Below, in pieces: positions 3,001-20,466 of a DNA stretch of 32,000 bases. The stretch lies in assembly GCF_003367075.2 (NCBI RefSeq), contig NZ_CP065936.1, positions 120,001 to 152,000 of the forward strand, given 5' to 3'. Each line of letters opens with the position of its first letter. Positions within the stretch are counted from its first letter, which is position 1. The notes beneath the pieces were generated by a model that worked only from the letters and a program-made list of their open reading frames with translations, had not been told where the DNA came from and ran no database searches. The position numbers and the translations under genes are program-made. Origin of the DNA: Cylindrospermopsis raciborskii Cr2010 (GTDB taxonomy: Bacteria > Cyanobacteriota > Cyanobacteriia > Cyanobacteriales > Nostocaceae).

Positions 3001-6000
3001 CAGGTACGGGGGTGAATACCACCCTCACCTTTGCGGGATACTATCAATTTTTAGAAGATGACCTCATCGCTTGGGACAATAGCAATGGTCATGGATTGGG
3101 GGTAGGCTTCCTTGGACTTGGTGCAAGTGCAGCTTCGGGTGTATCTGTAAGCGTTGTCAATGGTTTCAATATCGAAGGTTTGACCACTTCTCCCGATGGC
3201 AATAGCCTATATGTGGCATTCCGCACACCGCTAGAACCCACTGGCGATCGCACCAAAGCCTTAATCGTTCCCGTTACCAACTTGGGCACCATTCTCAATA
3301 CCAATGGCGGTACTACAGGATCCGCCACCTTTGGCGCACCAATTCAGCTAGACCTGGGCGGACGCGGCATTCGCAGCATTGAACGCAACAGCACAGGGCA
3401 GTATGTGATCATTGCAGGAGCTGTGGGCGCATCCACAAATAGCGCTCCCAATGATTTCCGTCTTTACACATGGACAGGCAACCCTACAGACAAACCCCTA
3501 TTGCGAGCCACGGATCTCACGGCCCTGGATAGCAATGGCAGTTTTGAGGGCATTGTCACCGTTCCTGAGAACCTCACTGGTGATAGCAAGATTCAACTAT
3601 TGGTGGATAATGGGGACACCTTTTGGTATGGCAACAGCACTGCTTCCAAGAATTTGAACCAAGACAACTGGCAGAAATTCCGCACTGAAGTGGTGACCTT
3701 GGGACCGATCAAGATCCACCAAATCCAAGGTAACGCTGTCAGTCAAACTTCCGCCGGTGGCCGCGCTGATATTAGTCCACTCAATGGTCAGACAGTAACA
3801 ATCGAAGCAATCGTAGTAGGTGACTTCCAGGCTGGTGATACAGACACTAAGCGGAACTTGAACGGCTTTTACGTTCAGGAAGAAGATGCTGATGGAGATG
3901 GGAATGTACTTACGTCTGAAGGTATTTTTGTATTTGACGGCTCTAATCCTAGTGTAGCAGTCAGTCGGGGAGACAAGGTTAAAATCACAGGAACGATTAG
4001 CGAGTTCTTTGGGGAAACCCAACTTACTCCCACAACAGTTACCATCATCAGTTCTGGCAATACCCTGCCCACAGCGGCAAATATTACCCTACCCACTCCT
4101 ACCACTAGCCTCAGCCAAGGGGGAACGCCTCAGCCAGATTTGGAAGCCTTTGAAGGGATGTTAGTTAAGTTCACGAACACCCTGACGGTGACGGAGATGT
4201 TTAACCTCGATCGCTTTAACGAGATCAAGTTAGCTCAAGGCGATCGCCCCCAACAGTTCACCCAGTTTAATAACCCGGATGTAGCGGGCTATGCAGCACA
4301 CCGGGTGGAGGTTGGTTCCCGCACCATCACTTATGATGATGGGTTAAGTGTTCAAAATGCTCTGATTGGGAATCTGGATGGCTTTGGTCCTATATTTAAC
4401 ACTGCTAGTAATATCCGCATGGGGGATAGAATTACAGATTTATCTGGTGTTCTTAGCTATCAGTGGGCCGGTAATGCTGCCAGTGGTGCAACCTGGCGGG
4501 TAAGATCTACTCAGGATGGTCAGAATAGGTTTACTAAGGTAAATGATCGTCCTGTAACTCCTAAGACAGTGGGTGGTTCTATTAAAGTTACGGGTTTTAA
4601 TGTCCTTAATTACTTCAAAACAATTGATCTGCCTGGTGTGAATACGGTGATTGGTCAAGATCCTCGTGGTGCGGACAGCATGGATGAGTTTAATCGCCAA
4701 ACGGACAAACTAGTTACTGCCCTACTAGCTATCAATGCGGATGTTTTAGGTTTAGCGGAACTGGAAAATGACTTTTTGGCGGGTTCTAGTGGGAATGGGA
4801 TTGAGTACCTCACAAATCAGCTTAATGCAAAAGCTGGCGCTGGAACCTATGCCTGGGTGAATCCAGGAACTCAGTTTGTGGGCAGTGATGCGATCGCGGT
4901 GGGACTGATCTACAAACCTATGGCGGTGAGTCTGTTAGGGGATGTAGCTATTCTGAATAGTTCTGAATTTATGGATCCTAACAACACAGGGCAGGATCGT
5001 AACCGTCCTGCAGTAGCACAAACCTTCCAAGATTTAGCAACTAACGAAAAATTTACGGTAGTAGTAAATCACCTAAAGTCTAAAGGCGCTTCTGAACTAA
5101 CAGACATCAACTCTCCAGACTACGATCAAAACGATGGTCAGGGCTTCTGGAACAATACCCGGACTAAAGCAATCCAGGCGCTAGTGGACTGGCTCAACAC
5201 CAATCCTACCAAGGTGAATGACTCAGATTATCTGCTCCTTGGTGACTTTAACGCCTATGCTCAGGAAGATCCGGTGAAAGTGCTAAAAAATGCTGGCTAT
5301 ATCGACCTGGCCTCCGCATTTCATCAAGGGACTACCGCATCCTACGTGTTTGATGGTCAAACCGGTACTCTGGACTATGCCTTTGCCAGTGCAAGCCTAG
5401 CACAGCAGGTAACAGGAGCAACAGAGTGGGCGATCAACAGTGATGAGGCCGATGGGATAGACTATAACCTTGACTTCGGAAGAGATGCTGCTATTTTTGA
5501 TGGTACCACCCCTTACCGATCCTCCGATCATGACCCGGTTATTGTGGGACTTAATCTGGTCTCCTCTGTTAACGAACCTCCTCTAATTATCAGTGGAACC
5601 TCTGGCCCAGACAATTTAAAAGCAGGAGTGAACTTTGCTGGTGTAAACCAAATCATATTTACTGGAGCAGGTTCTGATATGGTAGATATTCCCATTGGCG
5701 GAGCCAAGCCCAGTCTAGGTTCCAATAGCATCTTCACTGGCAGTGGTGCAGATACAATCTCTGTGGCTGATGGAGATCGGGCCTTTGGTGGTAGTGGGCA
5801 TGACCAGTTTGATGCCACAGAAGCCACTGGCTACCGGATCTCTGGTGGTGTGGGGAATGACATCTTCTCCCTCGGTGTTAATGGTCGTGCCATCGGTGGT
5901 GATGGTGATGACCGGTTCTTCGTGGGTGAAGGTGGAGGTAATATAATCTCCGGTGGTGCTGGTGCGGATCAGTTTTGGATTCTCACTGATGACCCTACCA

Positions 6001-6200
6001 AATTAAAAGCATCTAACACGATTGTTGACTACACCATCGGTACGGATGTAATAGGCATTGCCAACCAGGTGGCCGACTCTGTGGATGATCTAACCTTGAG
6101 TGGTAGTAATATCAGCGTAAATGGTGTGTTAATTGCCACCCTCAACGGGGTGAACGCTGCAAGTGCAACCTTCGTTTTTGGCAGTCCCTTGGCCAGCTAG
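3..6200 (+). CDS. Large secreted multidomain nuclease, ExeM/NucH-like. The N-terminus lies outside the window. Domains: Calx-beta-like x3, lamin-tail (LTD) x2, phytase-like/propeller-like region, OB-like region, EEP nuclease domain, RTX-like C-terminal module.
   Basis: A 2065-codon ORF is open to the window edge. EEP motifs seen: GFNVLNYF, LGLAELEN, VVVNHLKSKG, LLLGDFNAY, SSDHDPV. The LTD signature IRITEYxY..EF(V/F)ELTNIGNT..DLT(D/G)WSYDD occurs twice. RTX nonapeptides seen: GGSGHDQFD, GGVGNDIFS, GGDGDDRFF, GGAGADQFW. Reverse-strand ORFs inside it are short and low-complexity. Confidence 0.75.
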   Translation: MALQYRIGTTGNFTNIPSGYVADASSGPSFANLVTPVSAILPTEAENQAQLQVRIITTNALGNDEWIGIDNINIVGTPQTASASGITLTQSGNSTDLAEGGGTDTYSVVLNSQPTANVTIAINAGPQLTTNITSLTFTPQDWNVAQIVTVAAINDATFEGNHTGTLTHAVTSADTNYNSLSVANVTANITDNEAETAPTIQIRITEYMYSGANGEFVELTNIGNTTVDLTDWSYDDNSRIPGSFSLSGFGTVQAGESVIFTEATNTSDFRTAWGLAPSVKVIAGSNQGLGRADEINIYNQNNQRVDRLTYDDGTISGSVRTQNVSAWTGVTNLGLNDATKWQLSTVADAQGSVTSTGGDIGNPGRYAIGTVPSIVLTQTGGNTSIMEGGATDTYTLALTTTPTAPVNINVTVTDGQTLVSTDGVNFATTAIFALTDSIAKTITVRAVDDSIFEFKPHTGAIAHTVTSNDSTYNSLTIPNLNISIGDNDTAPNLPAIRITEYQYDGNGSEFFELTNIGNTAIDLTGWSYDDDSRIAGTVSLSDFGILQAGESVIITEAGAEIFRADWGLAPTVKIIGGLTVNLGREDEINIFNNNGILVDSLIYGDSTRFPGTGRTQNVSAWTAAANLGKNDITQWALSTVGDGLNSYNSLSGGTGNPSSYSSASVPSPAILIAQSGGNTAITEGVSTDTYTVVLRSQPTANVTVDVVASSQLNVTNTSLTFTPANWNVAQTVTVTGVDDNLFEDAHTGAISHSATSTDTRYNRITIPSVNVNITDNDVAVGAVPSITENTTSPLISLATTGIGVLSGVIGDPTDPASTLGIDFAIADADTSLNNLTVTVSSSNQTVVTNGNLVLSGTDITRNLKITPTGVGFSDITLTVNDGNNVVTYKINYAASQGSVSPNTTRFHTGTSDASTAIAIDDQYMLVGDDEDQRIRLYDRTKSGAPITSFDFGSVTGLTSEVDLEGSVKIGNRIYWIGSHGNNSSNQDAPNRERLFATTITGTGVNTTLTFAGYYQFLEDDLIAWDNSNGHGLGVGFLGLGASAASGVSVSVVNGFNIEGLTTSPDGNSLYVAFRTPLEPTGDRTKALIVPVTNLGTILNTNGGTTGSATFGAPIQLDLGGRGIRSIERNSTGQYVIIAGAVGASTNSAPNDFRLYTWTGNPTDKPLLRATDLTALDSNGSFEGIVTVPENLTGDSKIQLLVDNGDTFWYGNSTASKNLNQDNWQKFRTEVVTLGPIKIHQIQGNAVSQTSAGGRADISPLNGQTVTIEAIVVGDFQAGDTDTKRNLNGFYVQEEDADGDGNVLTSEGIFVFDGSNPSVAVSRGDKVKITGTISEFFGETQLTPTTVTIISSGNTLPTAANITLPTPTTSLSQGGTPQPDLEAFEGMLVKFTNTLTVTEMFNLDRFNEIKLAQGDRPQQFTQFNNPDVAGYAAHRVEVGSRTITYDDGLSVQNALIGNLDGFGPIFNTASNIRMGDRITDLSGVLSYQWAGNAASGATWRVRSTQDGQNRFTKVNDRPVTPKTVGGSIKVTGFNVLNYFKTIDLPGVNTVIGQDPRGADSMDEFNRQTDKLVTALLAINADVLGLAELENDFLAGSSGNGIEYLTNQLNAKAGAGTYAWVNPGTQFVGSDAIAVGLIYKPMAVSLLGDVAILNSSEFMDPNNTGQDRNRPAVAQTFQDLATNEKFTVVVNHLKSKGASELTDINSPDYDQNDGQGFWNNTRTKAIQALVDWLNTNPTKVNDSDYLLLGDFNAYAQEDPVKVLKNAGYIDLASAFHQGTTASYVFDGQTGTLDYAFASASLAQQVTGATEWAINSDEADGIDYNLDFGRDAAIFDGTTPYRSSDHDPVIVGLNLVSSVNEPPLIISGTSGPDNLKAGVNFAGVNQIIFTGAGSDMVDIPIGGAKPSLGSNSIFTGSGADTISVADGDRAFGGSGHDQFDATEATGYRISGGVGNDIFSLGVNGRAIGGDGDDRFFVGEGGGNIISGGAGADQFWILTDDPTKLKASNTIVDYTIGTDVIGIANQVADSVDDLTLSGSNISVNGVLIATLNGVNAASATFVFGSPLAS
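255..2333 (+). repeat. Intragenic domain repeats. Calx-beta-like module x3 (about 255-584, 1122-1464, 2010-2333), interleaved with LTD x2 (about 606-1104, 1491-1985).
   Basis: Recurrent peptide blocks: (I)xLTQSGGNT..EGG.TDTY.V.L.SQPTANVT...FTP..WNVAQ.VTV...DD..FE..HTG...H..TS.D..YN......N..I.DN(E/D). Also IRITEY.Y.G...EF.ELTN...DLT.WSYDD.SRI.G...LS.FG..QAGESVI.TEA...F...WGLAP.VK.I. Confidence 0.6.
4581..5558 (+). other. Endonuclease/exonuclease/phosphatase (EEP) catalytic domain of the nuclease ORF.
   Basis: Runs from IKVTGFNVLNYF to SSDHDPVIVGLNL and carries the ordered EEP motifs listed for the parent CDS. Confidence 0.7.
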
Positions 6201-6427: not shown

Positions 6428-9124
6428 ATGGCAACTGATATAACAAAAATTCTCATTGGCGAAACCACGGCCCTAATTCCCCAGGCCGGCGCCTCCACTG
6501 CACCTGAACATTTACTCGATGGTGGTAGCGGTGATACTGACTTCCCTTATGGAAAGTTCAAAGCGATGGCAACCGTGGGTGAAATTGATCCCAAAACCGG
6601 GCATGTATTAACAGGTTGGCCCGATGGTCAAGCAGCCTGGCTACTGGATGAAGACACTATCCGCGTTGCCTACCAGTCTGAGTCGTACGCCACCTTCGTC
6701 AAAGAAACCTATGGGTGGAAAATGGATAGTGGTGTGAGCTTTACCGGTTCCCACGTCCACGTCATCGACTACAATCGGGCTGCTTTTGCTGACTTCCTCA
6801 ACAACAACAGTCCCGCCAGCAAGATGTTTGAAGGAGCAGGACATCTATTTAATACCGTATATAACGTTTTTGGTGAAATTGTAGATGGCAAGAATGCTGA
6901 TCCTAAAGATTTGAGTGCAAAGTGGGGCAACCAAACGGGGGCAGATGGAACCCTTTACGAGTTTGACGAAAGATATCGCCTAACTCAAGGTGACTGGTTC
7001 TTCCACTCCTTCTGCGGTGCTTATTACGAGGAAGCGAACAAGTATGGTAACGGTATTGGCTTTGCCGATGATGTGTGGCTGATGGGTGAAGAGTGGAACA
7101 TTGGTCAGATGTATAGCAGTCGTGGTGGAGATAAATTCTTCACTGACAACACCATGGGTTTGGCTTCCATGGTAGTGGATATTGCCAATAAAACTGCTTA
7201 CACTGTCCCAGTTTTAGGACAGTCTGGCTACGAGAAAATACTGCCCATCAACTCCGGTCATAAGGACTATGTTGTTCTGGTTATGTCCGGTTATAACCTG
7301 GAGGTTGAACCCGCGCCTCTGAAGATCTATATTGGCAAGAAGAATGTGGATGCGGCGGGCAAGGCGATGAATTACAACACAGCTTCTGCTCGCGACGCCT
7401 TTCTGGGTCGCAATGGTTTACTCTTCGGTCAGCTCTATGGTATGGCTGCCACCAATGATACCTATGCAGACCTGGGCATTGCCAACGTAGACGCGGATAC
7501 TGAAATGCTGAATGCCTACACCGCTGATGCAGATGCTCCTGATACTTTCAAAGTGCGTTACTACCCCACGAAATATCGCTGGGATGGCTTCGACACCCCT
7601 GAAAATGCTGGTAAAACAGAGGTCTACCGGTGGCTGCAAGATGGTGACACTGTAGGTGGTGTGAAGGAAGCAAATGAGCAACCAGAAGGTTATACCTTCT
7701 TCAATGGTGACAGCAAAGTTGAGCACCCAGCAGTAGATCCAGATATCACCCAGTCTCGCTACGTGATCAACCTAACGGATGCCCGTTCTATTTTGGGTAT
7801 TGACTTTAACAACATCGTTACTGATCTGACCAACGATGCTGACGGTAACGGCTTACCGGATTACCTGTCCGCAGATGTAACTCGAGTCCTGGCAGGTGTG
7901 GATGGTGCTCTCGTCTTAGAAACCAATGGTAAAGGGGCAGCTCCTACGGGTCCAAACAACCCCGCTAGCTCTTTAACCCATGCAATTCATGTGGAACAGG
8001 GCAAGGCCTACGCAGATCAACCTGATGGTCTCCAGTGGGTCAAAACTTCTGATGGTGACTACCTCATCCTAGATGAAGATTCGGGTAACGATTACGGCGA
8101 GCGGAAGTACGTTCTGCCCATTGATTCCGAGACGTTACAATTGACAGATCCTGGTACAGGTTACTTCCTGGCTTCCGCTGGCGGTTCTCTTAACCCCCGT
8201 GCTAAGGACAAGGTTGCTGCCATCCCTGGCACCTTCTCAAGAGCTACAGGCGCTGAGTTTTCCGGTACTTGGAATGTCACCCACTTAGTAGCCAAGAAGG
8301 AAGACGGCAGTTTCTACACCCAGGAAGAACTTGATGGAACTGGTGCTCAAAGAATCATTGGTAGTTTGCCATTGGAAGAGCAGACCTTTATCGGTGTGGT
8401 GCAGCAAGGTGGGGAATCGGGCGGCATTCTGGCAGAACGCAAAGCAGACCAAGGTGGTCAAATTTTCATGTTCAACATTACGGAACCCCTTGAGTTCGTC
8501 AAGCCCCTGATTACTGGCACTCCCAATGCTGACACAATCCAAGCTGGGGTTGGGGAATTTACCGGAGTCAATAGTCTGGTGTTTACAGGTGCTGGCAAGG
8601 ATGAAGTGGATATCCCCATAGGGGGAGCTAAACTCTACCTAGGTTCCAATAGCATTTTCACTGGCAGTGGTGCGGATACAATCTCTGTGGCTGATGAAGA
8701 CCGGGCCTTTGGTGGTAGTGGGGATGACGAGTTTGATGCTACAGAAGCCACTGGCTACCGGATCTCTGGTGGTGTGGGGAATGACATCTTCTACCTCGGT
8801 GTTAATGGTCGTGCCATCGGTGGTGATGGTGATGACCGGTTCTTCGTGGGTGAAGGTGGAGGTAATATAATCTCCGGTGGTGCTGGTGCGGATCAGTTTT
8901 GGATTCTCACTGATGACCCTACCAAATTAAAAGCATCTAACACGATTGTTGACTACACCATCGGTACGGATGTAATAGGCATTGCCAACCAGGTGGCCGA
9001 CTCCGTGGATGACCTGACCTTGAGTGGTAGTAATATCAGCTTAAATGGTGTGTTAATTGCTACCCTTAACGGGGTGAATGCTGCAAGTGCAACCTTCGTT
9101 TTTGGCAATCCTTTGGCCAGCTAG
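6428..9124 (+). CDS. Secreted PhoX-like (DUF839-type beta-propeller) phosphatase candidate with an RTX-like C-terminal module.
   Basis: 898-aa ORF with the SD-like AAGGAAAG upstream of the ATG and no N-terminal signal peptide. PhoX-reminiscent blocks: GWPDGQAAW...VAYQSE, HSFCGAYYEE...GEEW, QSGYEKI, PDGLQWV..DGDYLILDEDSG, GAEFSGTW, VVQQGGESGG. The C-terminal 190 aa is shared with both neighbouring genes. Confidence 0.5.
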   Translation: MATDITKILIGETTALIPQAGASTAPEHLLDGGSGDTDFPYGKFKAMATVGEIDPKTGHVLTGWPDGQAAWLLDEDTIRVAYQSESYATFVKETYGWKMDSGVSFTGSHVHVIDYNRAAFADFLNNNSPASKMFEGAGHLFNTVYNVFGEIVDGKNADPKDLSAKWGNQTGADGTLYEFDERYRLTQGDWFFHSFCGAYYEEANKYGNGIGFADDVWLMGEEWNIGQMYSSRGGDKFFTDNTMGLASMVVDIANKTAYTVPVLGQSGYEKILPINSGHKDYVVLVMSGYNLEVEPAPLKIYIGKKNVDAAGKAMNYNTASARDAFLGRNGLLFGQLYGMAATNDTYADLGIANVDADTEMLNAYTADADAPDTFKVRYYPTKYRWDGFDTPENAGKTEVYRWLQDGDTVGGVKEANEQPEGYTFFNGDSKVEHPAVDPDITQSRYVINLTDARSILGIDFNNIVTDLTNDADGNGLPDYLSADVTRVLAGVDGALVLETNGKGAAPTGPNNPASSLTHAIHVEQGKAYADQPDGLQWVKTSDGDYLILDEDSGNDYGERKYVLPIDSETLQLTDPGTGYFLASAGGSLNPRAKDKVAAIPGTFSRATGAEFSGTWNVTHLVAKKEDGSFYTQEELDGTGAQRIIGSLPLEEQTFIGVVQQGGESGGILAERKADQGGQIFMFNITEPLEFVKPLITGTPNADTIQAGVGEFTGVNSLVFTGAGKDEVDIPIGGAKLYLGSNSIFTGSGADTISVADEDRAFGGSGDDEFDATEATGYRISGGVGNDIFYLGVNGRAIGGDGDDRFFVGEGGGNIISGGAGADQFWILTDDPTKLKASNTIVDYTIGTDVIGIANQVADSVDDLTLSGSNISLNGVLIATLNGVNAASATFVFGNPLAS

Positions 9125-9231: not shown

Positions 9232-11616
9232 ATGAGCAAATTTCGCGTTAATCCCTATCTGCAAAATCCCTCTTCCAATGGGGTTTCTGTCACTTGGTTT
9301 ACTACAGAAGATGTGGACGGTACTCTTACAGTGACTGGCCCAGGTTTGACCAGTCCTTTAGTGTTAACCAGTAATCCCACCTTTGAACCCGTACTCGCCT
9401 ACACCACTGCGGAGCAAAATCAGACCATCACGGGGTTGGCAAATAGTTGGTTAATCGACAACAATAATTACAAGCACAGAATAAATTTAGACGGATTAGA
9501 TTCAAATCAGACTTATAGTTACACCGTCGCCCAAGGGGGTGCTACCTTTACTTCTACCTTTAAAACTGCTCCCCTTGCTACAGAATGGTCTAGTATTCGC
9601 TTCATTGCCATGTCCGACAGTGAAACAGAACCCCGTGGGCGAATCACCTATCGGGAGTGGCAACCAGGTTTATTGGCGGAGGGTTCTGAGCGTCCTAGCT
9701 TAACGGGTAGTCAGTGGGCTACCACCTTTGGCACCTCTGGTTCTGGCGCTGCCCAAACCTTGCGCTATGCGCTGACGGAAACTAAGGGGTATCAAGAGAA
9801 CTTGAATATTGTCAACAGTAGAAACCCGGACTTTTTACTCATGCCTGGAGACCTGGTACAAGGGGGTGGCTACCAACCAGGTTGGGATGAATTTTTCCGT
9901 CACAACGCCGGGGAGTTTGATAGTGGGCTGTCTAAGTACGCCATTTTACCCGCCCTGGGGAACTGGGAAAATTTTGGCGCTCTCAACGGGGGGTATGGTA
10001 CGGATGCTGATGGCCGTTTTGGACCAAAGTTTGGGCGAGATAAGTACCATGTTTACTTTGATAGTCCGGAAAATGGAACTCCAACTCACCGGGACAACTA
10101 CTACCGGGTAGACTATGGTCCTGTGACTATCCTCACTCTAGATAGCTCTAATGGGGAACCGGATGATCGCCGCAGTAACTATGGTGGTTCGGGTCAGCCA
10201 CCTAAGGTCACTGGTACTACTTTTACTGATCCGGGAAAAGACACCCAGGATAATTATACCCGTCAACAGTACGAAAGCTTTGGCGGTACTGATCTGGCAG
10301 ACTTTAACCCCGGTAGTACTCAGTGGAACTGGGTAGAGGCCCAACTTCAAGATGCGCGCGCTAATGGTCAAATCATTTTTGTACAGTTTCACCATGTTCC
10401 CTATAGTAGTGGCGAGCATGGACAACCTATGAATCATGACTTATCCACTGGTCAGGGCGGTACACCTCTACGCCAATATCAAGGAATGTTTGAAACCTAT
10501 GGTGTTGCTGCTGTTCTCTCTGGTCATAGTGAGATGTTTGAGCGTAGTTTTGTCGATCAAAATGCAGATGGCACTGGGGTCACTTACTACGATGTTGGTG
10601 TGTCCGGTGATGGATTACGGGGTGAAAAGCGCACGGGATCTGGGGTGAGTACTCCTTTGCTTAGTTATAATGAGTACAGTCAGTGGACTGCCGATCAAAG
10701 TGAAGCGGAGGTTTGGAAAGTGATTGATGGTGTGCCTCAACTCGTGGACGGAGGCAAACATTATGGTCATTTGGAGGTAAATATTGAACCTTTCACTCCT
10801 ATAGCAGGAATCACTGCCAAAATTGAGTTTACGCCGGTCTACAGTTTCCCCATTCTGGATGCAACCTATAACCTTGTGGCAACTGAGCGCCGCGTTTATG
10901 ATGATCCGGTGGTTATGCTGGTCACGGATGAAGGATCGGTGATTAATATTCCTTTAACTCCTGAGGCTACTGTGGCGGTCTTAGAAGCTAAGCTAGTCAC
11001 TACTACACCAGGATCTGATATGGTCATTGCTAATGCCCCCAATAGTCAGGCAGATGGTATCAATGACCTGATCTTGACCGGAGCTGGAAATGATGAGGTG
11101 GATACTACTTTGTCTTTGCCCCTAACTCTGAAGGGACAAAATCGTATTTTTACGGGGAGTGGTAGTGATATAATAACGGTAAATGATCAGGATCGGGGTT
11201 TTGGCGGCAGTGGTAATGATGTATTTTATGCCACAGATGCCAGTGGCTACCGGATCTCTGGTGGTGTGGGTAATGATATCTTCTACCTCGGTGTTAATGG
11301 TCGTGCCATCGGTGGTGAAGGTGATGACCGGTTCTTCGTGGGTGAAGGTGGAGGTAATATAATCTCTGGTGGTGCTGGTGCGGATCAGTTTTGGATTCTC
11401 ACTGATGACCCTACCAAGTTAAAAGCATCTAACACGATTGTTGACTACACCATCGGTACGGATGTAATAGGCATTACTAACCAGGTTGCCAACTCTAAGG
11501 GTGACCTCACCTTCAGTGGTAGTGATATCAGCCTAAATGGTGTGTTAATTGCTACTCTTAACGGAGTGAATGCTGCAGGTGCAACCTTCGTTTTTGCCAA
11601 TCCTTTGGCCAGCTAG
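9232..11616 (+). CDS. Secreted purple-acid-phosphatase-like metallophosphoesterase with an RTX-like C-terminal module.
   Basis: 794-aa ORF. PAP-type N-terminus (NPYLQNPSSNGVSVTWFT). Calcineurin-like motif order: FIAMSDSE, PGDLVQGG, LGNWEN, VQFHHVPYSS, LSGHSEMFERS. No signal peptide. Shared C-terminal module. Confidence 0.65.
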   Translation: MSKFRVNPYLQNPSSNGVSVTWFTTEDVDGTLTVTGPGLTSPLVLTSNPTFEPVLAYTTAEQNQTITGLANSWLIDNNNYKHRINLDGLDSNQTYSYTVAQGGATFTSTFKTAPLATEWSSIRFIAMSDSETEPRGRITYREWQPGLLAEGSERPSLTGSQWATTFGTSGSGAAQTLRYALTETKGYQENLNIVNSRNPDFLLMPGDLVQGGGYQPGWDEFFRHNAGEFDSGLSKYAILPALGNWENFGALNGGYGTDADGRFGPKFGRDKYHVYFDSPENGTPTHRDNYYRVDYGPVTILTLDSSNGEPDDRRSNYGGSGQPPKVTGTTFTDPGKDTQDNYTRQQYESFGGTDLADFNPGSTQWNWVEAQLQDARANGQIIFVQFHHVPYSSGEHGQPMNHDLSTGQGGTPLRQYQGMFETYGVAAVLSGHSEMFERSFVDQNADGTGVTYYDVGVSGDGLRGEKRTGSGVSTPLLSYNEYSQWTADQSEAEVWKVIDGVPQLVDGGKHYGHLEVNIEPFTPIAGITAKIEFTPVYSFPILDATYNLVATERRVYDDPVVMLVTDEGSVINIPLTPEATVAVLEAKLVTTTPGSDMVIANAPNSQADGINDLILTGAGNDEVDTTLSLPLTLKGQNRIFTGSGSDIITVNDQDRGFGGSGNDVFYATDASGYRISGGVGNDIFYLGVNGRAIGGEGDDRFFVGEGGGNIISGGAGADQFWILTDDPTKLKASNTIVDYTIGTDVIGITNQVANSKGDLTFSGSDISLNGVLIATLNGVNAAGATFVFANPLAS

Positions 11617-13865: not shown

Positions 13866-15254
13866 ATGAGTGTGGAGTCTAATTCTAATTCAACTTCTAA
13901 TTTAAGTCCTGATTCTCACAGTTTATCAGGTAACCATTTGCTAGATCATCAATTACACCCAGATGATTTTGATGGTAAAGCGGGTGAAAATACACTGGCT
14001 TCAGAACGTTTCTTTGCTCAACAAGCCCTAACTGCTATTTCCTTCTTACAATCCCCGAAATATACCAATTTTCTCAAAAAATCTACCTCTATTTTCTCCC
14101 ACAACACTACCCTGACCTCCGGTGCTAATTCTCAAGATTTTATCTTTACCCTCCTGGCGATCGCCTTGACTATTATCAGTGCGACTATTAATAATAGTTT
14201 TCTGGGTGTTATCAGCACCATATTGAATATTTTCCTATGCTTAAAACTACTTTTACCCTGGTTGAGAGCAATTATTAAAGAGTGGGTTTCTCCACAAGAT
14301 CAGAAGATTTTTTTAGGTTTTGTCGCCCTTACCTTTGCCATTATTGGCAGCTTAAAATTCTTGGGTTTAGGTAATGTTCTCATCAAGGAAACTCAGAAAA
14401 TTAATTGGGATACTTTAGGAAGTATAGCAGATTGGTTTGGAGCTTTGGGTCAAATTTTTATAGCTATAATTGCCGTTTATGTGGCCTGGAGACAATATAT
14501 AATTTCCAAAGATCTAACTATTCAACAAAATCTACTCACAGTTCAGCAAAATATTATTACCCAACAACAAACCATAGATTCCTACTTTCAAGGAATTTCT
14601 GACTTAGTCTTAGATGAGGAAGGACTATTAGAAGATTGGCCCCAAGAAAGAGCGATCGCTGAAGGGCGCACCTCTGCAATTCTTAGTAGTGTAGATGCTA
14701 GTGGAAAAGCCAAAATACTCAGATTTCTTTCTCGCTCTAAACTCCTCACTCCTTTACAACGTGACCGTCGTCTAGGTAGACCCATTCTTGATGGTATGGG
14801 TGGTTATGCTGAAGACAGATTATATGGAACCCGGGTTATAGATTTAGGAGTAATGTTAGCGGGTTCTGATTTATCAAATACTGATTTACGCTGGACAGAC
14901 TTAACGGAAGTGAATTTAGTTCATGCTAACCTAAGTGGTTGCGATTTAGTCAAAGCTAACCTATCTCGTGCTATACTATACGAGGCAAATATTAACCAAG
15001 CAGATTTAAATGGTATACGTTTGTTTTATGGGTCAGCAGAGCAAGCTTCACCTCGCAGTCGTACTGAACCTCCTAACTATCAAACAGGGGAGCATACAGG
15101 AGCAGTGGTAGAGAACGTGGATTTTACTGATGTACAAAGAATGTCAGAATCAACTCGTTACTATTGTTGTGCTTGGTGTGGAGAGAAATCCAGAACTACC
15201 ATACCTGGTGGTTGTGAAGGAATACCAAATAAATTGGCAAGAAATGAAATTTGA
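13866..15254 (+). CDS. Membrane protein with a C-terminal pentapeptide-repeat domain and a Cys-rich tail.
   Basis: Several hydrophobic helices in residues about 95-210. Pentapeptide repeats: DLSNTDLRWTDLTEVNLVHANLSGCDLVKANLSRAILYEANINQADLNG. C-terminal YYCCAWCGEKSRTTIPGGCEG. Confidence 0.7.
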   Translation: MSVESNSNSTSNLSPDSHSLSGNHLLDHQLHPDDFDGKAGENTLASERFFAQQALTAISFLQSPKYTNFLKKSTSIFSHNTTLTSGANSQDFIFTLLAIALTIISATINNSFLGVISTILNIFLCLKLLLPWLRAIIKEWVSPQDQKIFLGFVALTFAIIGSLKFLGLGNVLIKETQKINWDTLGSIADWFGALGQIFIAIIAVYVAWRQYIISKDLTIQQNLLTVQQNIITQQQTIDSYFQGISDLVLDEEGLLEDWPQERAIAEGRTSAILSSVDASGKAKILRFLSRSKLLTPLQRDRRLGRPILDGMGGYAEDRLYGTRVIDLGVMLAGSDLSNTDLRWTDLTEVNLVHANLSGCDLVKANLSRAILYEANINQADLNGIRLFYGSAEQASPRSRTEPPNYQTGEHTGAVVENVDFTDVQRMSESTRYYCCAWCGEKSRTTIPGGCEGIPNKLARNEI

Positions 15255-15291
15255 TGTATCTTAATATCTTGAATCTTTTTGATTGATAATT

Positions 15292-16239
15292 ATGAGTGAT
15301 AGAATGCGTGCTATTGTAGTTGACCCTAATATACCCGGGCGCTTAACAATAAAAGAAGTTCCCGTACCCACACCCACTGCGAATGAAGCTTTGATTAGAG
15401 TTGCATCAACTTCATTAAATCGCGGTGAACTCAGACGTGCTAGTACAGCTACTCCTGGTTGGCGTCCTGGTTGGGATTTAGCTGGTACTGTAGAAAAATC
15501 CGCTGCTGATGGTTCTGGTCCTGCTGTGGGAACACGGGTAGTAGGTTATGTTCCCAGTGGTGCATGGGGAGAGTTAGTCCCAGTACCCACCCATTCTCTG
15601 TCCGAATTACCACACTTTGTATCATTTACTCAAGCTGCTACCCTACCGATAGCAGGTCTAACAGCTTACCATATCATGAAAAAAGGTGGTTTTCTACTGA
15701 ATAAATCCGTGTTAATTACTGGTGCATCTGGTGGAGTTGGTAACTTTGCCATTCAGCTGGCTCGATTAAGCGGAGCAAAAGTAGTTGCACATCTACGACA
15801 ATCTAAATATGAATCTGTAGTCAAACAAGCGGGAGCTCGTCACGTGGTCATTGGTGAGGATATTTCATCTGCTCAAGTATACGGACCCTATCACTTGATT
15901 GTAGATTCTGTAGGTGGTAATATTCTTGGTCAAGCTCTCAATTTTCTGGACTCTAATGGAACAGCTGTGGTATTTGGAGCTACTGGGGGAAGGGAAGTAA
16001 CCTTTAACGCAGGCAATCTTTATGCTCTTGGTGGTGCGAGTATATATGGGTTAATAGTATTTCATGAATTGAAACAAGAACCAGCGGCTATAGGGTTAAA
16101 ATGGTTGTTGGAGCTAGTGGAATCTGCCCAATTACGTCCCCATATTGAGATAGAAGCGTCATGGAACGAAGTTGCCAACATAGCACAAAAGTTGATGGAA
16201 AGAAGTTTTCCTGGTAAAGCAGTTTTGCATATTTTATGA
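15292..16239 (+). CDS. Zinc-type alcohol dehydrogenase / quinone oxidoreductase family (MDR superfamily) protein.
   Basis: MRAIVV...LIRVASTSLNRGE, the Rossmann motif LITGASGGVGNFAIQLA and the tail FPGKAVL. ATG at 15292 is preferred over TTG at 15283. Confidence 0.7.
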   Translation: MSDRMRAIVVDPNIPGRLTIKEVPVPTPTANEALIRVASTSLNRGELRRASTATPGWRPGWDLAGTVEKSAADGSGPAVGTRVVGYVPSGAWGELVPVPTHSLSELPHFVSFTQAATLPIAGLTAYHIMKKGGFLLNKSVLITGASGGVGNFAIQLARLSGAKVVAHLRQSKYESVVKQAGARHVVIGEDISSAQVYGPYHLIVDSVGGNILGQALNFLDSNGTAVVFGATGGREVTFNAGNLYALGGASIYGLIVFHELKQEPAAIGLKWLLELVESAQLRPHIEIEASWNEVANIAQKLMERSFPGKAVLHIL

Positions 16240-16292
16240 GCCCACTTACTGCTAATCTAATATCAATTAGTTGGTTTGTTATCCATCCGTTT
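16240..16292 (-). pseudogene. Decayed 5' fragment of a sixth coiled-coil unit. It abuts the oxidoreductase stop codon and supplies the aberrant C-terminus of unit 1.
   Basis: GCCCACTTACTGCTAATCTAATATCAATTAGTTGGTTT..GTTATCCATCCGTT aligns to the N-terminal coding part of the intact units (GCGCTCACAGCTAATCTAATATCAATCAGTTGGTTTTCTATGTTATCTATCCGTT). The ATGAGTAA junction and about 25 nt are deleted. Confidence 0.6.
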
Positions 16293-16539
16293 GTGGTGGA
16301 AGATTTTGCAGAATATCTAAAATGCGGCGGTTTTCAGTTTGTAAACCCCTCACATCCAGTTGTATTTCTCTTACTTCTGATTGTATCTCTCTCATTTCTG
16401 TAACCACACTATCAAAGTTACGCTGCAGTACTTCAAAATTACGCTGATGTATAGCCACTGTTTCTAGAAGTGCGCTCACAGCTAATCTAATATCAATCAG
16501 TTGGTTTTCTATGTTATCTATCCGTTCTTGATTACTCAT
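16279..16539 (-). CDS. Coiled-coil mini-protein, array unit 1 (86 aa, two 21-bp repeats, divergent tail PPQTDG).
   Basis: ATG-initiated ORF that tiles exactly with its neighbours. N-terminal module MSNQERIDNIENQLIDIRLAVSALLETVAIHQRNFE; C-terminal module RGLQTENRRILDILQNLPP. Confidence 0.65.
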   Translation of the reverse strand: MSNQERIDNIENQLIDIRLAVSALLETVAIHQRNFEVLQRNFDSVVTEMREIQSEVREIQLDVRGLQTENRRILDILQNLPPQTDG

Positions 16540-16858
16540 AACTTCCCCCGGGTGGAAGATTTTGGAGAATATCTAAAATGCGACGATTTTCAGTTTGCAA
16601 ACCCCTCACATCCAGTTGTATTTCTCTTACTTCTGATTGCATCTCCCTAATTTCTGATTGCATTTCTCTAGTGTCTGATCGCATTTCTCTAATTTCTAAC
16701 TGTATCTCTCTCATTTCTGTAACCATACTGTCAAAGTTACGCTGCATTACTTCAAAATTACGCTGATGTATAGCCACTGTTTCTAGAAGTGCGCTCACAG
16801 CTAGTCTAATATCAATCAGTTGGTTTTCCATGCTATCCATCCGTTCTTGATTACTCAT
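16532..16858 (-). CDS. Coiled-coil mini-protein, array unit 2 (108 aa, five 21-bp repeats).
   Basis: Same N- and C-terminal modules. Its stop overlaps the next ATG by 8 nt (ATGAGTAA). Confidence 0.7.
   Translation of the reverse strand: MSNQERMDSMENQLIDIRLAVSALLETVAIHQRNFEVMQRNFDSMVTEMREIQLEIREMRSDTREMQSEIREMQSEVREIQLDVRGLQTENRRILDILQNLPPGGSYE
16609..16713 (-). repeat. Five in-frame copies of the 21-bp repeat in unit 2.
   Basis: Copies start at 16609, 16630, 16651, 16672 and 16693. Other tracts: unit 1 at 16353-16394 (2 copies), unit 3 at 16928-16969 (2), unit 4 at 17184-17246 (3). Confidence 0.9.
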
Positions 16859-17114
16859 AATTTCCCCCAGGTGGAAGATTTTGGAGAATATCTAAAATGC
16901 GACGATTTTCAGTTTGTAAACCCCTCACATCTAGTTGTATTTCTCTTACTTCTGATTGCATCTCTCTAATTTCTATAACCACACTGTCAAAGTTACGCTG
17001 CATTACTTCAAAATTACGCTGATGTATAGCCACTGTTTCTAGAAGTGCGCTCACAGCTAGTCTAATATCAATCAGTTGGTTTTCCATGCTATCCATCCGT
17101 TCTTGATTACTCAT
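16851..17114 (-). CDS. Coiled-coil mini-protein, array unit 3 (87 aa, two 21-bp repeats).
   Basis: Same modules, with 8-nt overlaps on both sides. Confidence 0.7.
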   Translation of the reverse strand: MSNQERMDSMENQLIDIRLAVSALLETVAIHQRNFEVMQRNFDSVVIEIREMQSEVREIQLDVRGLQTENRRILDILQNLPPGGNYE

Positions 17115-17391
17115 AATTTCCCCCAGGTGGAAGATTTTGGAGAATATCTAAAATGCGACGATTTTCAGTTTGTAAACCCCTCACATCTAGTTGTATTTCT
17201 CTTACTTCTGATTGCATCTCTCTAATTTCTGATTGCATCTCTCTCATTTCTATAACCACACTGTCGAAGTTACGCTGCATCACCTCAAAGTTGCGCTGAT
17301 GTATAGCCACTGTTTCTAGAAGTGCGCTCACAGCTAATCTAATATCAATCAGTTGGTTTTCCATGCTATCCATCCGTTCTTGATTACTCAT
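17107..17391 (-). CDS. Coiled-coil mini-protein, array unit 4 (94 aa, three 21-bp repeats).
   Basis: Same modules, with 8-nt overlaps on both sides. Confidence 0.7.
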   Translation of the reverse strand: MSNQERMDSMENQLIDIRLAVSALLETVAIHQRNFEVMQRNFDSVVIEMREMQSEIREMQSEVREIQLDVRGLQTENRRILDILQNLPPGGNYE

Positions 17392-17731
17392 AATTTCCCC
17401 CAGGTGGAAGATTTTGGAGAATATCTAAAATGCGACGATTTTCAGTTTGTAAACCCCTCACATCTAGTTGTATTTCTCTTACTTCTGATTGCATCTCTCT
17501 GATTTCTGATTGCATCTCCCTAATTTCTAACTGGATCTCTCTCATTTCTGATTGCATTTCTCTAATTTCTGATTGCATCTGTCTCATTTCTACAACCACA
17601 TTGTCAAAGTTACGCTGCATCACCTCAAAGTTGCGCTGATATATAACAGATGTTTCTAGAAGTGCGCTCACAGCTAATCTAATATCAATCAGTTGGTTTT
17701 CCATGTTATCTATCCGTTCTTGATTGCTCAT
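17384..17731 (-). CDS. Coiled-coil mini-protein, array unit 5 (115 aa, six 21-bp repeats). First cistron of the array.
   Basis: Same modules. It is the most divergent N-terminus (TSVIYQ, DNVVVEMRQ). Confidence 0.7.
   Translation of the reverse strand: MSNQERIDNMENQLIDIRLAVSALLETSVIYQRNFEVMQRNFDNVVVEMRQMQSEIREMQSEMREIQLEIREMQSEIREMQSEVREIQLDVRGLQTENRRILDILQNLPPGGNYE
17461..17586 (-). repeat. Six in-frame copies of the 21-bp repeat in unit 5 (plus-strand consensus TTTCTGATTGCATCTCTCTAA, encoding the heptad (I/M)REMQSE).
   Basis: Copies start at 17461, 17482, 17503, 17524, 17545 and 17566. Confidence 0.9.
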
Positions 17732-17812
17732 AAAAAACTAAAACTAGCTAAATTCTGTTCTTGGTTCAGGATTTTTGGGCGATCGCAAAATATATTAACA
17801 ATCTAACATTAG

Positions 17813-18412
17813 TTAACTTCTTAAACTTCCTGCTTGACAGTCTCGTAACCACAATTTAACAGCTTGCGCAATAACTCCATTACTACTATTTCTAGGTGGG
17901 GATATAACTGATTTTAATGGATATTCACCTGCTTGGCTAAACATCATTACCAATCGCCAACCTGATGGAGTTTTGGTCACAAATAACCAGTGGAACTGTT
18001 GTAACTCTATTGATTTTTCCTTGCTATATTGTCGTTCTAACGTAGTAAAAAATAGCTGTTCCACACCTTTGGATACATAACTGGAATCCGTATTAATATT
18101 AGGATTTAAAGGTAAAGATTTAAACTCAGATCTCCCCGCTACCATAACATAGGGATAAAGGTCAACACCTAGACCAAGACGACGAGAACGTTGGGTCACC
18201 CGATTGGCATAACTAGGTAAATCAAGCATTAACTGAGTAGTTAAATTTTCCCAACTCTGTTGAGAACAAGAAGTGGTAAATTTGGTTTTGGATGGGTAGT
18301 TTATGGGTTCATAAGCAGTATTTTTAGCGTAGGTAGGAGATAAAAAAACAAATAGGCAGTAATAAAAGGAATAAGGTAGGAAAAATAGTCTATTCACAAT
18401 CACAACACCCAA
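17813..18412 (-). CDS. Hypothetical exported protein. The start is uncertain (TTG or GTG, with no in-frame ATG near the N-terminus).
   Basis: 199-codon ORF with a hydrophobic N-terminus ending ...SPTYA/KN (signal-peptide-like). I recognise no motif. Confidence 0.45.
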   Translation of the reverse strand: MGVVIVNRLFFLPYSFYYCLFVFLSPTYAKNTAYEPINYPSKTKFTTSCSQQSWENLTTQLMLDLPSYANRVTQRSRRLGLGVDLYPYVMVAGRSEFKSLPLNPNINTDSSYVSKGVEQLFFTTLERQYSKEKSIELQQFHWLFVTKTPSGWRLVMMFSQAGEYPLKSVISPPRNSSNGVIAQAVKLWLRDCQAGSLRS

Positions 18413-18454
18413 TAATCATAAATCATCAATGGTTAGTGGTTAGTCATTAAGCTC

Positions 18455-18503
18455 CTCCGGTTTAGAAAACCGGGGATTTCTCAAAAGTTCATAGATGAAC
18501 TTT
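18455..18503 (-). terminator. Two adjacent hairpins just downstream of pyrF (possible terminator region, no clear U-tract).
   Basis: AAAGTTCAT-AG-ATGAACTTT (18484-18503) and CCTCCGGTTT-AGA-AAACCGGGG (18455-18475). Confidence 0.3.
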
Positions 18504-18504
18504 C

Positions 18505-19236
18505 TCAGCTAGTAGATGATAGATTTTGAATTGAACCTAGTTCCTCACATATCTTTGCCCAGGCGCTCAACGGATCAGTAGCAGCAGTGATAGGTCTGCC
18601 AATTACTAAATAATCAGCACCAGATTGTAAAGCTTGCACGGGAGACAAAGAACGTTTTTGGTCATCCTTATTGGCCCACACTGGGCGCACTCCAGGACAA
18701 ACCAACAAAAAATCTGGTCGACAACTTTCCCGCAGTTGTGCTACCTCCTGGGGAGAACAAACTACCCCATCTAAACCAGCATTTTCAGCCAAGAGTGCCA
18801 TTTGTAATGCGAATTCAGGCAATTCCAAGGGAATTTTTAAGTCAAAAGCTAAATCTCGTGCTGAAATGCTAGTCAACAAGGTAATGGCAATTAATTTTGG
18901 TGGTGCTGCACCACTAGCTCCCTGGAACAATGCGTCCATCGCCCCCATAAGACAATCCTTACCACAAGTTGCGTGAATTGTCAACAAATCCACCCCATAA
19001 GTACCAGCAACACGACAAGCACTCCCTACTGTGTTAGGAATGTCGTGAAACTTTAAATCTAGGAAAACTCGCTTCTGGCGGGATTTTAAAACATCCAGAA
19101 TCCTCGGACCAACGCTGGTAAATAATTCTAAACCAACCTTCCAAAAGGACACGTCTGGTAGCAATTCTATTAATGCGATCGCCTGATCTAAAGTTGGCAC
19201 ATCTAAGGGAACAATAATCCGTTCACTGGCAATCAT
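18505..19236 (-). CDS. pyrF: Orotidine-5'-phosphate decarboxylase.
   Basis: Motifs [52 protein letters not shown]. Confidence 0.9.
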
Positions 19237-19269
19237 GGACTTTTACTTGTGATTTATGAGGATGGATAA

Positions 19270-20466
19270 CTATGGAACAATACGAACAAAGTTCTTTTTA
19301 CCTACTTGTAAAACTTTACCAGATAAATCTCCGGGACCAAAAAAGGTCAAATCCACATCGGTAATCTTTTCACTGTCCAAGCGCACACCACCTTCTTGAA
19401 TTTTTCTTTTACCTTCCCCTGTGCTTTTGCACAAACCAGAAGCCGAGAGAATATGAGCTAATTTGGCAGGGAATTGAGTGATATTAGCCAAAGAAAACTC
19501 CGGTAATACGCCTTCCTTCCCCTTACTTTTTGCCGCCTCCTGGGCCTGATTAGCCTGGATTTCACCATGATATTGGCGGACAATTTCCCAAGCTAAGAAC
19601 TGTTGGCGGTCTCGTGGATTATCTGGCAAGGTGTCTAAAGGTAAATCCGTCAGTAATTCAAAATACTGAGTCAGCAGATGATCCGGAACACCTTGTAGTT
19701 TCTGGTACTTTTGGGAGGGATGTTCCGACAACCCCACATAATTGCCCAGGGACTTAGACATTTTTTGAATACCATCAGTTCCAATTAAAATGGGCAATAG
19801 TAAACCAAACTGAGGACGTAAACCAAAATGCCGTTGTAAATCCCGACCTACTGCAATGTTAAATTTCTGATCAGTACCGCCCAATTCTACATCAGATTTA
19901 ATAGCCACCGAATCAAAACCCTGCATCAAAGGATAGAGGAACTCATGAAGAAAAATAGGATTCTCTTTTTTATAACGTTCGGCAAAACCCTCCTTAGCCA
20001 ACATCTGACCCACTGTCATGGTTGACAGCAACTCTAATATTTTGGCTAAATCCAAACCGGAAAGCCATTGAGAATTATAATGTACCTCTAATCTCCCAGG
20101 TGTGTCAAAATCTAAAATTGGTCTTACCTGTTCAAGATAGGTTTGGGCATTTTGTGACACATCCTCTTCTGTCAGTTGACGACGCACATCTGACTTACCT
20201 GTTGGGTCGCCAATTCTAGCAGTAAAATCACCAATAATCAAAACCGCAGTATGACCAGCATCTTGAAAGGCCCGCAGTTTTCTAACTGGGATGCTATGAC
20301 CCAGATGAATATCCGCACCGGTAGGATCAATACCCAATTTAATTCGCAAAGGATGGTCAGCATTTAATAAACGCTTTTCCAAACTTTCAGTTTCACTATC
20401 AGTATCATGGGATTGGGGAAAAATTTCCGCCACACCACGATACAACCAGGAGAAATCTTTAGCCAT
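19270..20466 (-). CDS. tyrS: Tyrosyl-tRNA synthetase.
   Basis: [13 protein letters not shown] (HIGH motif), KMSKS, and a C-terminal S4-like domain ([15 protein letters not shown]). It lies 33 nt upstream of pyrF, so the two are probably co-transcribed. Confidence 0.9.

Follow-up and report, generated by a model that had tools for sequence, protein, structure and literature searches.

In the 32,000-nucleotide (nt) stretch of the Cylindrospermopsis raciborskii Cr2010 genome analysed here (contig NZ_CP065936.1, positions 120,001 to 152,000; hereafter the window), a segment read from the minus strand has arisen by clade-specific tandem amplification of a single small gene and holds five intact copies and a decayed sixth. 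That gene is a member of a real, previously undescribed protein family with an unusual gene architecture, kin in kind to small stand-alone coiled coils and to tandem paralogue arrays. We lean, with modest conviction, towards reading the array as a tandem-amplified gene of an undescribed cyanobacterial coiled-coil family, whose products would form register-locked parallel rods serving as adaptors or spacers. The original prediction, made from the letters alone, had described five minus-strand open reading frames (ORFs) of 115, 94, 87, 108 and 86 amino acids (aa), and all of them are present in the ORF list (copies 1 to 5 below). They tile the interval from 17731 to 16279 completely, as had been claimed, with neighbouring ORFs overlapping by 8 nt, and the N-terminal module, the (I/M)REMQSE heptads and the conserved tail that were quoted are all found as written. 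Tandem Repeats Finder detects repeats as long as a gene, with periods of 256, 277 and 319 nt (90-95% matches, scores 1099-1356), together with 21-nt sub-repeats that encode (I/M)RE(M/I)QSE heptads in frame, and the tandem array is therefore real rather than a product of chance. With direct, near-identical ORFs, reproducible assemblies and purifying selection, the segment has the features of a tandem paralogue array. The description of the copies as a graded length series holds only in part: the lengths do differ, but only four are distinct, copies 3 and 5 being equal in coiled-coil length in this strain.

Independent assemblies do not collapse the array to a single copy, but contain the same five genes with the same neighbours, namely tyrS, pyrF and a 194-199-aa hypothetical protein on one flank and, on the opposite flank, an ADH_zinc_N oxidoreductase together with a pentapeptide-repeat protein. 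C. raciborskii VHLJ01, CP195152 and CP073250 each have five copies of 115-101-87-108-93 aa, while CP091284 has the 115-94-87-108-86 aa set of the window, so that across strains of the species copies 1, 3 and 4 are constant in length and copies 2 (94/101) and 5 (86/93) vary by one heptad. A protein identical to copy 3 (P0001) occurs on seven contigs, six of them longer than 1 Mb, and the copy 5 protein is identical to P0018 (C6N34_000585 of C. raciborskii Cr2010). There are four copies in C. curvispora CP060822 (94-101-108-93 aa), in which copy 4 is conserved, two in R. curvata AP018317 (108-93 aa) and one in R. brookii D9 (114 aa). A D9-like metagenome contig also has a single copy, of 100 aa counted from the family methionine, and on the same count the lengths of D9-like proteins in other metagenomes come to 93, 100 or 107 aa.

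Comparison of the paralogues over their non-repeat modules (45 N-terminal and 25 C-terminal codons) gave synonymous/non-synonymous differences of 6/0 between copies 2 and 3, 8/1 between copies 2 and 4, 2/1 between copies 3 and 4 and 10/4 between copies 2 and 5, with copy 1 differing from the other copies by about 7-8 non-synonymous and 3-11 synonymous changes. By these counts all copies are under purifying selection. A per-frame substitution test scored the wobble-coincident antisense frame as well as the sense frame, so the strands are not separable by that test. The sense frame is kept, with invariant residues, in homologues across cyanobacterial orders, and the antisense frames are free of stops in at most three of 91 family genes from other genomes, the remainder, at least 88, containing stops. 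The mostly synonymous differences among copies 2-4 and the closed antisense frames of homologues argue that these are real, conserved protein-coding genes. This essentially refutes the idea, to which we assign almost no probability, that the segment is a non-functional or artefactual repeat, whether an assembly artefact, a series of decaying pseudogenes or a non-coding or antisense-coded element: antisense ORFs of 41-69 aa do exist, copy 4 is frameshifted in one assembly and the sixth copy has decayed, but the same array recurs in independent assemblies, the substitutions among copies 2-4 are nearly all synonymous, and frame and motifs persist across orders with the antisense strand interrupted. 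In the assembly with the broken copy (JAZGLX010000001.1; positions 4257-4858 of locus L082), copy 4 is split into pieces of 36 and 66 aa and copy 5 starts late, reflecting either an assembly or sequencing error in the repeat or real pseudogenisation in one strain.

The junctions of the array suggest how it may have grown. All are formed by the 9-mer TATGAGTAA, with the ATG of each next gene lying inside the Tyr-Glu-stop of the previous one, and each 9-mer is followed by tcaagaacgg. The single-copy gene of R. brookii D9 has the 9-mer at both its start (tttttt-TATGAGTAA-tcaagaacgg) and its end (gataaa-TATGAGTAA-gtgggctcat). Unequal recombination at TATGAGTAA would expand or contract the array, and because the 9-mer is present at both gene ends, such recombination would create the 8-nt start/stop overlap automatically. 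The original prediction overlooked the sixth-copy remnant at the end of the array, which C. raciborskii shares with C. curvispora and R. curvata but not with R. brookii D9. Copy 5 ends in PPQTDG, not in the PPGGNYE of the other tails, because the loss of about 25 nt took away the junction and fused the decayed sixth copy to it. The GGGGG within each tail is a putative Shine-Dalgarno (SD) site for the next copy that could pair with the anti-SD sequence CCUCC, and internal copies would then be translated by coupling through it; the D9 allele lacks GGGGG and its tail is PPDKYE. Copy 1 is preceded by its own 81-nt gap, which has no SD-like sequence. The overlap architecture is compatible with translational coupling.

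The products are predicted to be essentially pure coiled-coil helix with an unbroken heptad register, in agreement with the textbook coiled-coil pattern originally described. Modelled with AlphaFold2 from the family alignment, the 87-aa copy forms one helix over residues 3-78 (predicted local distance difference test, pLDDT, 93.5) and the 115-aa copy 1 one helix over residues 3-106 (pLDDT 94.2), followed in both by a short disordered tail. One register extends unbroken from Met7 to Leu80, with hydrophobic residues at 56 of 63 'a' and 59 of 63 'd' positions versus 10-15 of 58-63 at the other positions. The five products, of 86-115 residues, are free of Cys and have isoelectric points of 4.6-4.7, and the claim that they lack a signal peptide or transmembrane (TM) segment is borne out by an acidic, polar N-terminus (MSNQERMD) and the lack of any hydrophobic segment. 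The predicted core contains two conserved polar residues, a nearly invariant His31 at 'd' and an invariant Asn70 at 'a'. Asn at an 'a' position, as in GCN4, is the subject of an established coiled-coil rule, and because of the core Asn and His and such rules we infer that the proteins assemble in parallel and in register into homo-oligomers, dimers being the likeliest form. With Asn and His buried as layers that would fix the register, each copy would pair with its own length; copies of different length would be expected to mismatch one polar layer when paired. The staggered hetero-oligomers that had been suggested are therefore unlikely, as the invariant Asn at 'a' would be mismatched out of register. 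The resulting rods, of about 11-15 nm in 1-nm steps, could act as adaptors or spacers and dock some partner through the invariant C-terminal motif, and amplification of the gene would both raise dosage and provide several lengths simultaneously.

Two near-invariant motifs define the family: HQRNFE, with its His at 'd', and, near the C-terminus, RGLQTENRRILD, with its Asn at 'a' and all columns invariant except R71, which is nearly so. All five copies in the window carry RGLQTENRRILD, and HQRNFE is present in copies 2-5 and replaced by YQRNFE in copy 1. The spacing between the two motifs is 19+7n residues (19, 26, 33, 40, 47, 54 or 61) in 193 of 201 proteins (96%), with most exceptions offset by +4, which resembles a coiled-coil stutter, and because of this spacing length changes occur in whole heptads only. 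Heptads are gained and lost through the 21-bp in-frame repeats. Copies 1-5 of the window have spacings of 61, 40, 33, 54 and 33. Three independent assemblies contain each of the spacings 33, 40, 47, 54 and 61 exactly once, a pattern that is broken by strain Cr2010 and that we regard as suggestive and not statistically compelling. A second subfamily, with an N-terminus beginning MTTERWTDE, has total lengths of 82, 89, 96, 103 and 110 aa.

Homologue searches returned 127 and 184 proteins, those listed being 56-135 aa and annotated either as 'hypothetical' or, wrongly and automatically, under names such as 'chromosome segregation ATPase' or 'MlaD', and an exhaustive profile search gave 440 representatives of 50%-identity clusters (E<=1e-3). 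A search of one genome per bacterial or archaeal species yielded 132 confirmed loci, and the 80 that were retained are all cyanobacterial, including Nostocales, Microcoleus and other Oscillatoriales, Leptolyngbyaceae, Thermosynechococcaceae, Acaryochloridaceae, Chroococcidiopsidaceae and Gloeobacterales; on these loci the unnamed family is restricted to cyanobacteria. Neither the two homologue searches nor the cluster look-up contained a named member or one from a model organism. That no model cyanobacterium is among the matches fits with our finding nothing relevant in literature searches on the motifs or on Cylindrospermopsis coiled coils; a search on DUF6887 likewise gave nothing relevant. 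Three proteins from Calothrix and relatives (P0021, P0024 and P0025; 130-135 aa) start with an additional, degenerate N-module that continues in frame into an intact gene; like the sixth-copy remnant of the window, they are relics of tandem duplication. In Nostoc linckia NIES-25 (L076, 7974-8219) a different tandem heptad-like repeat, ELHRLAI/ELRRLAI, takes the place of the gene's N-terminal half and also forms an ORF upstream of the copy in Nostoc ATCC 43529 (L010), and a repeat element may have inserted there.

The original prediction recognised no characterised family, and this is upheld by profile searches of Pfam, NCBIfam, PADLOC, PHROGs (all four covering the five proteins and 27 family members) and the PDB, which gave only sub-threshold coiled-coil noise. 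The best PDB match, at E 0.0045, was the reovirus sigma-1 coiled coil, which we regard as noise. Two PHROG families of no assigned function, phrog_8196 (E 0.001) and phrog_6986 (2e-4), weakly match the invariant C-terminal motif and not the heptad run, aligning to residues 61-78 or so of the 87-aa copy and 73-106 of the 115-aa copy. Several identities were considered and rejected. SlyX (PF04102) scored 14.0-17.2 bits (E 0.008-0.08) against a cut-off of 30, over residues 4-57 in ten of 27 members, and was discounted because the match is indistinguishable from other coiled-coil noise (CENP-F, KxDL and EzrA among others). ZapB (PF06005) is absent at E<=10 for copies 2, 3 and 5 and from the top families of the 27 members. 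FtsB/DivIC (PF04977) reached 16.2 bits against a cut-off of 28.9, and the N-terminal transmembrane anchor is lacking. A periplasmic ruler of the Lpp type is excluded by the lack of a signal peptide, of a lipobox Cys and of Cys in any copy, and SMC/EzrA/Rad50-type proteins by scores of 13-21 bits against cut-offs of 39-729, with only coiled-coil segments aligning.

Several findings weigh against the adaptor or spacer reading. The array is found at this locus in relatives with one to five copies, and most other cyanobacteria carry only one; together with the two copy lengths that vary among close relatives, this means that a precise length set is not required, and it weakens the idea of a graded series. 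No conserved neighbour or fusion indicates a partner, the putative spacer or adaptor role is drawn from motif conservation, and ZapB, a protein of similar size, is antiparallel. Promoter-like sites are rarer in the region than in shuffled sequence, so that the candidate upstream of copy 1 (Table) does not rise above chance. A derived 5-nt patch (TSVIY) is common to the D9 gene and copy 1 of each array, at a position where later copies keep the family-typical TVAIH, within an ETVAIHQRNFE context, and on account of this shared patch at least two subtypes probably predate the split; the view of the D9 single copy as ancestral was downgraded for the same reason. This suggests that D9 may represent a secondary reduction rather than the ancestral state, one that a single deletion between AGTAA microhomologies would yield. 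By its flanking genes the D9 lineage is about 5% distant from all array-bearing genomes. The subtype of copy 1, which we call Y-type and which the original prediction also overlooked, is the first gene in all related arrays and the sole gene in D9. In Y-type genes (window 17384-17731; L001 8001-8345; L092 2682-3008; L093 3001-3285) Tyr replaces the core His31 and DNVVVEMRQ is found in addition, and this conserved paralogue, set apart from the H-type copies that come later, ranges most widely in heptad number (93-115 aa).

In a second explanation the array is purely a dosage amplification of an abundant self-assembling structural protein that forms ZapB-like bundles or filaments, the different lengths being a neutral by-product of unstable 21-bp repeats. 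We consider this possible, though clearly second to the adaptor or spacer reading, with which it is compatible. The copies are near-identical and under purifying selection, copy and heptad number drift among strains and species, and cyanobacteria are known to carry small structural genes in tandem, gvpA for instance. Against generic bundling, the invariant polar motifs favour a specific interface, three assemblies hold each of five spacings once, and other multi-copy arrays are also mostly unequal in length: several Microcoleus and Nostocales genomes have arrays of two to four copies with ordinary spacers of about 55-430 nt, in which the copies are mostly of unequal size (in L094, for instance, 86, 100, 93 and 107 aa from the family Met). 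A stronger form of the adaptor or spacer reading would have the array maintained as a 'ruler kit' of orthogonal register-locked homodimers in an arithmetic length series, which we regard as improbable. A partner at the RGLQTENRRILD end would there be held at graded distances, about 1 nm per step, from a structure bound by the N-terminal module. Rod length and copy number would be tuned through the 21-bp repeats and the TATGAGTAA junction, and the Y-type gene in first place would differ in function from the H-type genes behind it.

No neighbouring gene is conserved across clades, synteny being confined to within clades. Copies in Nostoc adjoin one conserved gene of 351-391 aa, which we take to be mnmA, and those in Microcoleus lie downstream of a 561-603-aa gene, presumably ilvD. 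In distant subfamilies the gene often overlaps a small upstream gene by 4 nt (ATGA) or follows closely behind it (L050, L055, L062, L064, L072, L080, L079, L049 and L091), the partner having an RHH_5 (E 2e-11), Cro/C1-type HTH_26 (about 1e-12), RHH_1 (4e-5) or DUF6887 (about 1e-16) domain, and to judge by these sequences the pairs look like mix-and-match two-gene cassettes of a toxin-antitoxin-like or regulatory kind. Such pairs raise the possibility, which we think unlikely, that the family is the downstream part of mobile toxin-antitoxin-like or phage-type cassettes, composed of a DNA-binding protein and a coiled-coil effector, and that the array is a domesticated or orphaned descendant. The patchy distribution of the family and its diverse contexts would agree with this, as would the A. 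azotica copy, which lies among Uma2, HicAB and an AAA_15/DUF3226 pair, and the only domain fusion found in the family, P0343 (227 aa; L098 610-1293 and L099 1169-1852), in which a GIY-YIG domain (PF01541, E 5.6e-8) is joined to an ERWTD-type module ending RGLQTENRRILEHL, on a phage-like contig behind an HTH_3 gene. Yet the partner is missing here and from the majority of close-subfamily loci, within its clade the array keeps its synteny and is stable, there is no PADLOC match, and the family matched none of 72,556 plasmids, none of 50,697 phage genomes and, behind an RHH_1 gene, a single one of 2.9 million viral contigs. A type II toxin-antitoxin or defence cassette at the window locus itself was rejected, as the 199-aa neighbour has no RHH or HTH domain and PADLOC gave only noise. 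In Altericista sp. CCNU0014 (L097, 5637-6291) a family gene follows, after 23 nt and on the same strand, a gene for a CsoR-type repressor (PF02583); a metal-sensing neighbour is of interest given the conserved core His, and this is a single case.

Comparison with known systems places the array beside several of them without identity to any. The nearest genomic precedent is provided by gvpA-type arrays in cyanobacteria, in which near-identical small genes lie head to tail in strain-variable copy number, usually read as dosage amplification; the copies of gvpA all have one length, with spacers between them, whereas the window genes overlap by 8 nt at a 9-mer and are unequal in heptad count. ZapB, a Z-ring-associated protein of E. 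coli, is likewise cytoplasmic, about 80-115 aa, essentially one coiled-coil helix and without TM segment, signal peptide or further domain. It is a gammaproteobacterial, single-copy protein whose antiparallel dimers bundle and bind ZapA/FtsZ, and differs from the window proteins in having no heptad-number polymorphism, neither HQRNFE nor RGLQTENRRILD, and no sequence relationship to them. SlyX is comparable as a small coiled-coil protein (about 70 aa) of no assigned function. The type II toxin-antitoxin bicistrons recall those distant members that lie 4-nt-overlapped behind RHH, Cro/C1-type HTH or DUF6887 genes, but the window locus has no DNA-binding partner and no similarity to a known toxin family or PADLOC model. 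Lpp (Braun's lipoprotein) is a periplasmic protein with a signal peptide and a lipobox Cys. Like Lpp and Omp-alpha, the window proteins would be small rod-like coiled coils, and their length is quantised in whole heptads, but they lack signal peptide and Cys, and that their length sets a distance is conjectural. Coiled coils as spacers and rulers, Omp-alpha among them, have been reviewed (PMC5082667). Such rulers are the nearest functional concept, and the nearest precedent for repeat-encoded variable heptads is the poly-psi domain of NeuO from the CUS-3 prophage, which has RLKTQDS heptads in variable number and an activity that scales with that number (PMC3046976). In both cases short DNA repeats encode tandem heptads and length varies among strains. 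The NeuO heptads are an N-terminal appendage of an enzyme, in contrast to those of the window, which lie inside a stand-alone helix, and NeuO expression is phase-variable, whereas the 21-nt in-frame units of the window cannot shift the frame.

About 440 clusters at 50% identity share two strikingly invariant motifs, for which the libraries searched gave no database family, solved structure or paper. Two DNA mechanisms are visible in the array, intragenic 21-bp repeats and a 9-nt identity of start and stop that would expand the array and make overlapping genes in one step. If the rods are length-defined adaptors, the question becomes what is spaced in cyanobacterial cells, and why a bloom-forming, toxin-producing genus keeps several lengths. 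If they are not, the locus is still a strain marker by copy and heptad number, and a pitfall for short-read assembly and annotation.

Table. Features of the array and its immediate flanks (positions in the window)
Feature	Position	Strand	Remarks
ADH_zinc_N oxidoreductase	15283-16239	+	flanks array
Sixth-copy remnant	16245-16293	-	N-module codons (..ACGGATGGATAACAAACCAACTAATTGATATTAGATTAGC) joined directly to 3' flank AGTAAGTGGGCTCATA; fused to last ORF
Copy 5	16279-16539	-	86 aa here, 93 aa in other strains; tail PPQTDG
Copy 4	16532-16858	-	108 aa; heptad run MREIQLE IREMRSD TREMQSE IREMQSE
Copy 3	16851-17114	-	87 aa; shortest complete copy
Copy 2	17107-17391	-	94 aa here; 101 aa in other strains
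Copy 1	17384-17731	-	115 aa; Y-type, ETSVIYQRNFE and DNVVVEMRQMQSE; 6 heptad units between NFD and VRGLQ
Junction 9-mer TATGAGTAA	17384-17392, 17107-17115, 16851-16859, 16532-16540	-	start codon overlaps preceding stop codon
GGGGG, Shine-Dalgarno-like	17397-17401, repeated before copies 3, 4, 5	-	Gly-Gly codons of PPGGNYE tail, 5 nt upstream of next ATG
21-bp heptad-repeat runs	17468-17591, 17191-17251, 16935-16974, 16616-16719, 16360-16400	-	Tandem Repeats Finder
Promoter-like candidate	17789-17816	-	TTAACT-16 nt-TATATT in gap upstream of copy 1
199-aa hypothetical protein	17813-18412	-	hydrophobic N-terminus; flanks array upstream

The immediate neighbours of the array are those originally named, an ADH_zinc_N oxidoreductase on one side and, on the other, a 199-aa hypothetical protein with a hydrophobic N-terminus, with pyrF, tyrS and a penicillin-binding protein farther out. 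A setting among housekeeping loci free of mobile-element hallmarks had been proposed, and this is correct for the locus itself, which has no mobile-element genes within about 5 kb, but distant family members often lie in two-gene cassettes. The 199-aa protein had no match in Pfam, PADLOC or PHROGs, and among the loci examined it was seen solely in the Cylindrospermopsis/Raphidiopsis clade. Its gene lies on the same strand as the array and 81 nt from it, after tyrS and pyrF, and co-transcription with the array is possible. An Rfam scan of positions 14000-20000 found no RNA family. Elsewhere in the window, three plus-strand ORFs follow one another: a partial ORF of more than 2065 aa at 3-6200, with lamin-tail domains and an Exo_endo_phos domain, an 898-aa ORF at 6428-9124 with no Pfam match, and a 794-aa metallophosphoesterase-like ORF at 9232-11616, for which the match to a purple-acid-phosphatase N-domain is sub-threshold. 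These three may constitute a secreted nuclease/phosphatase cluster for phosphate scavenging.

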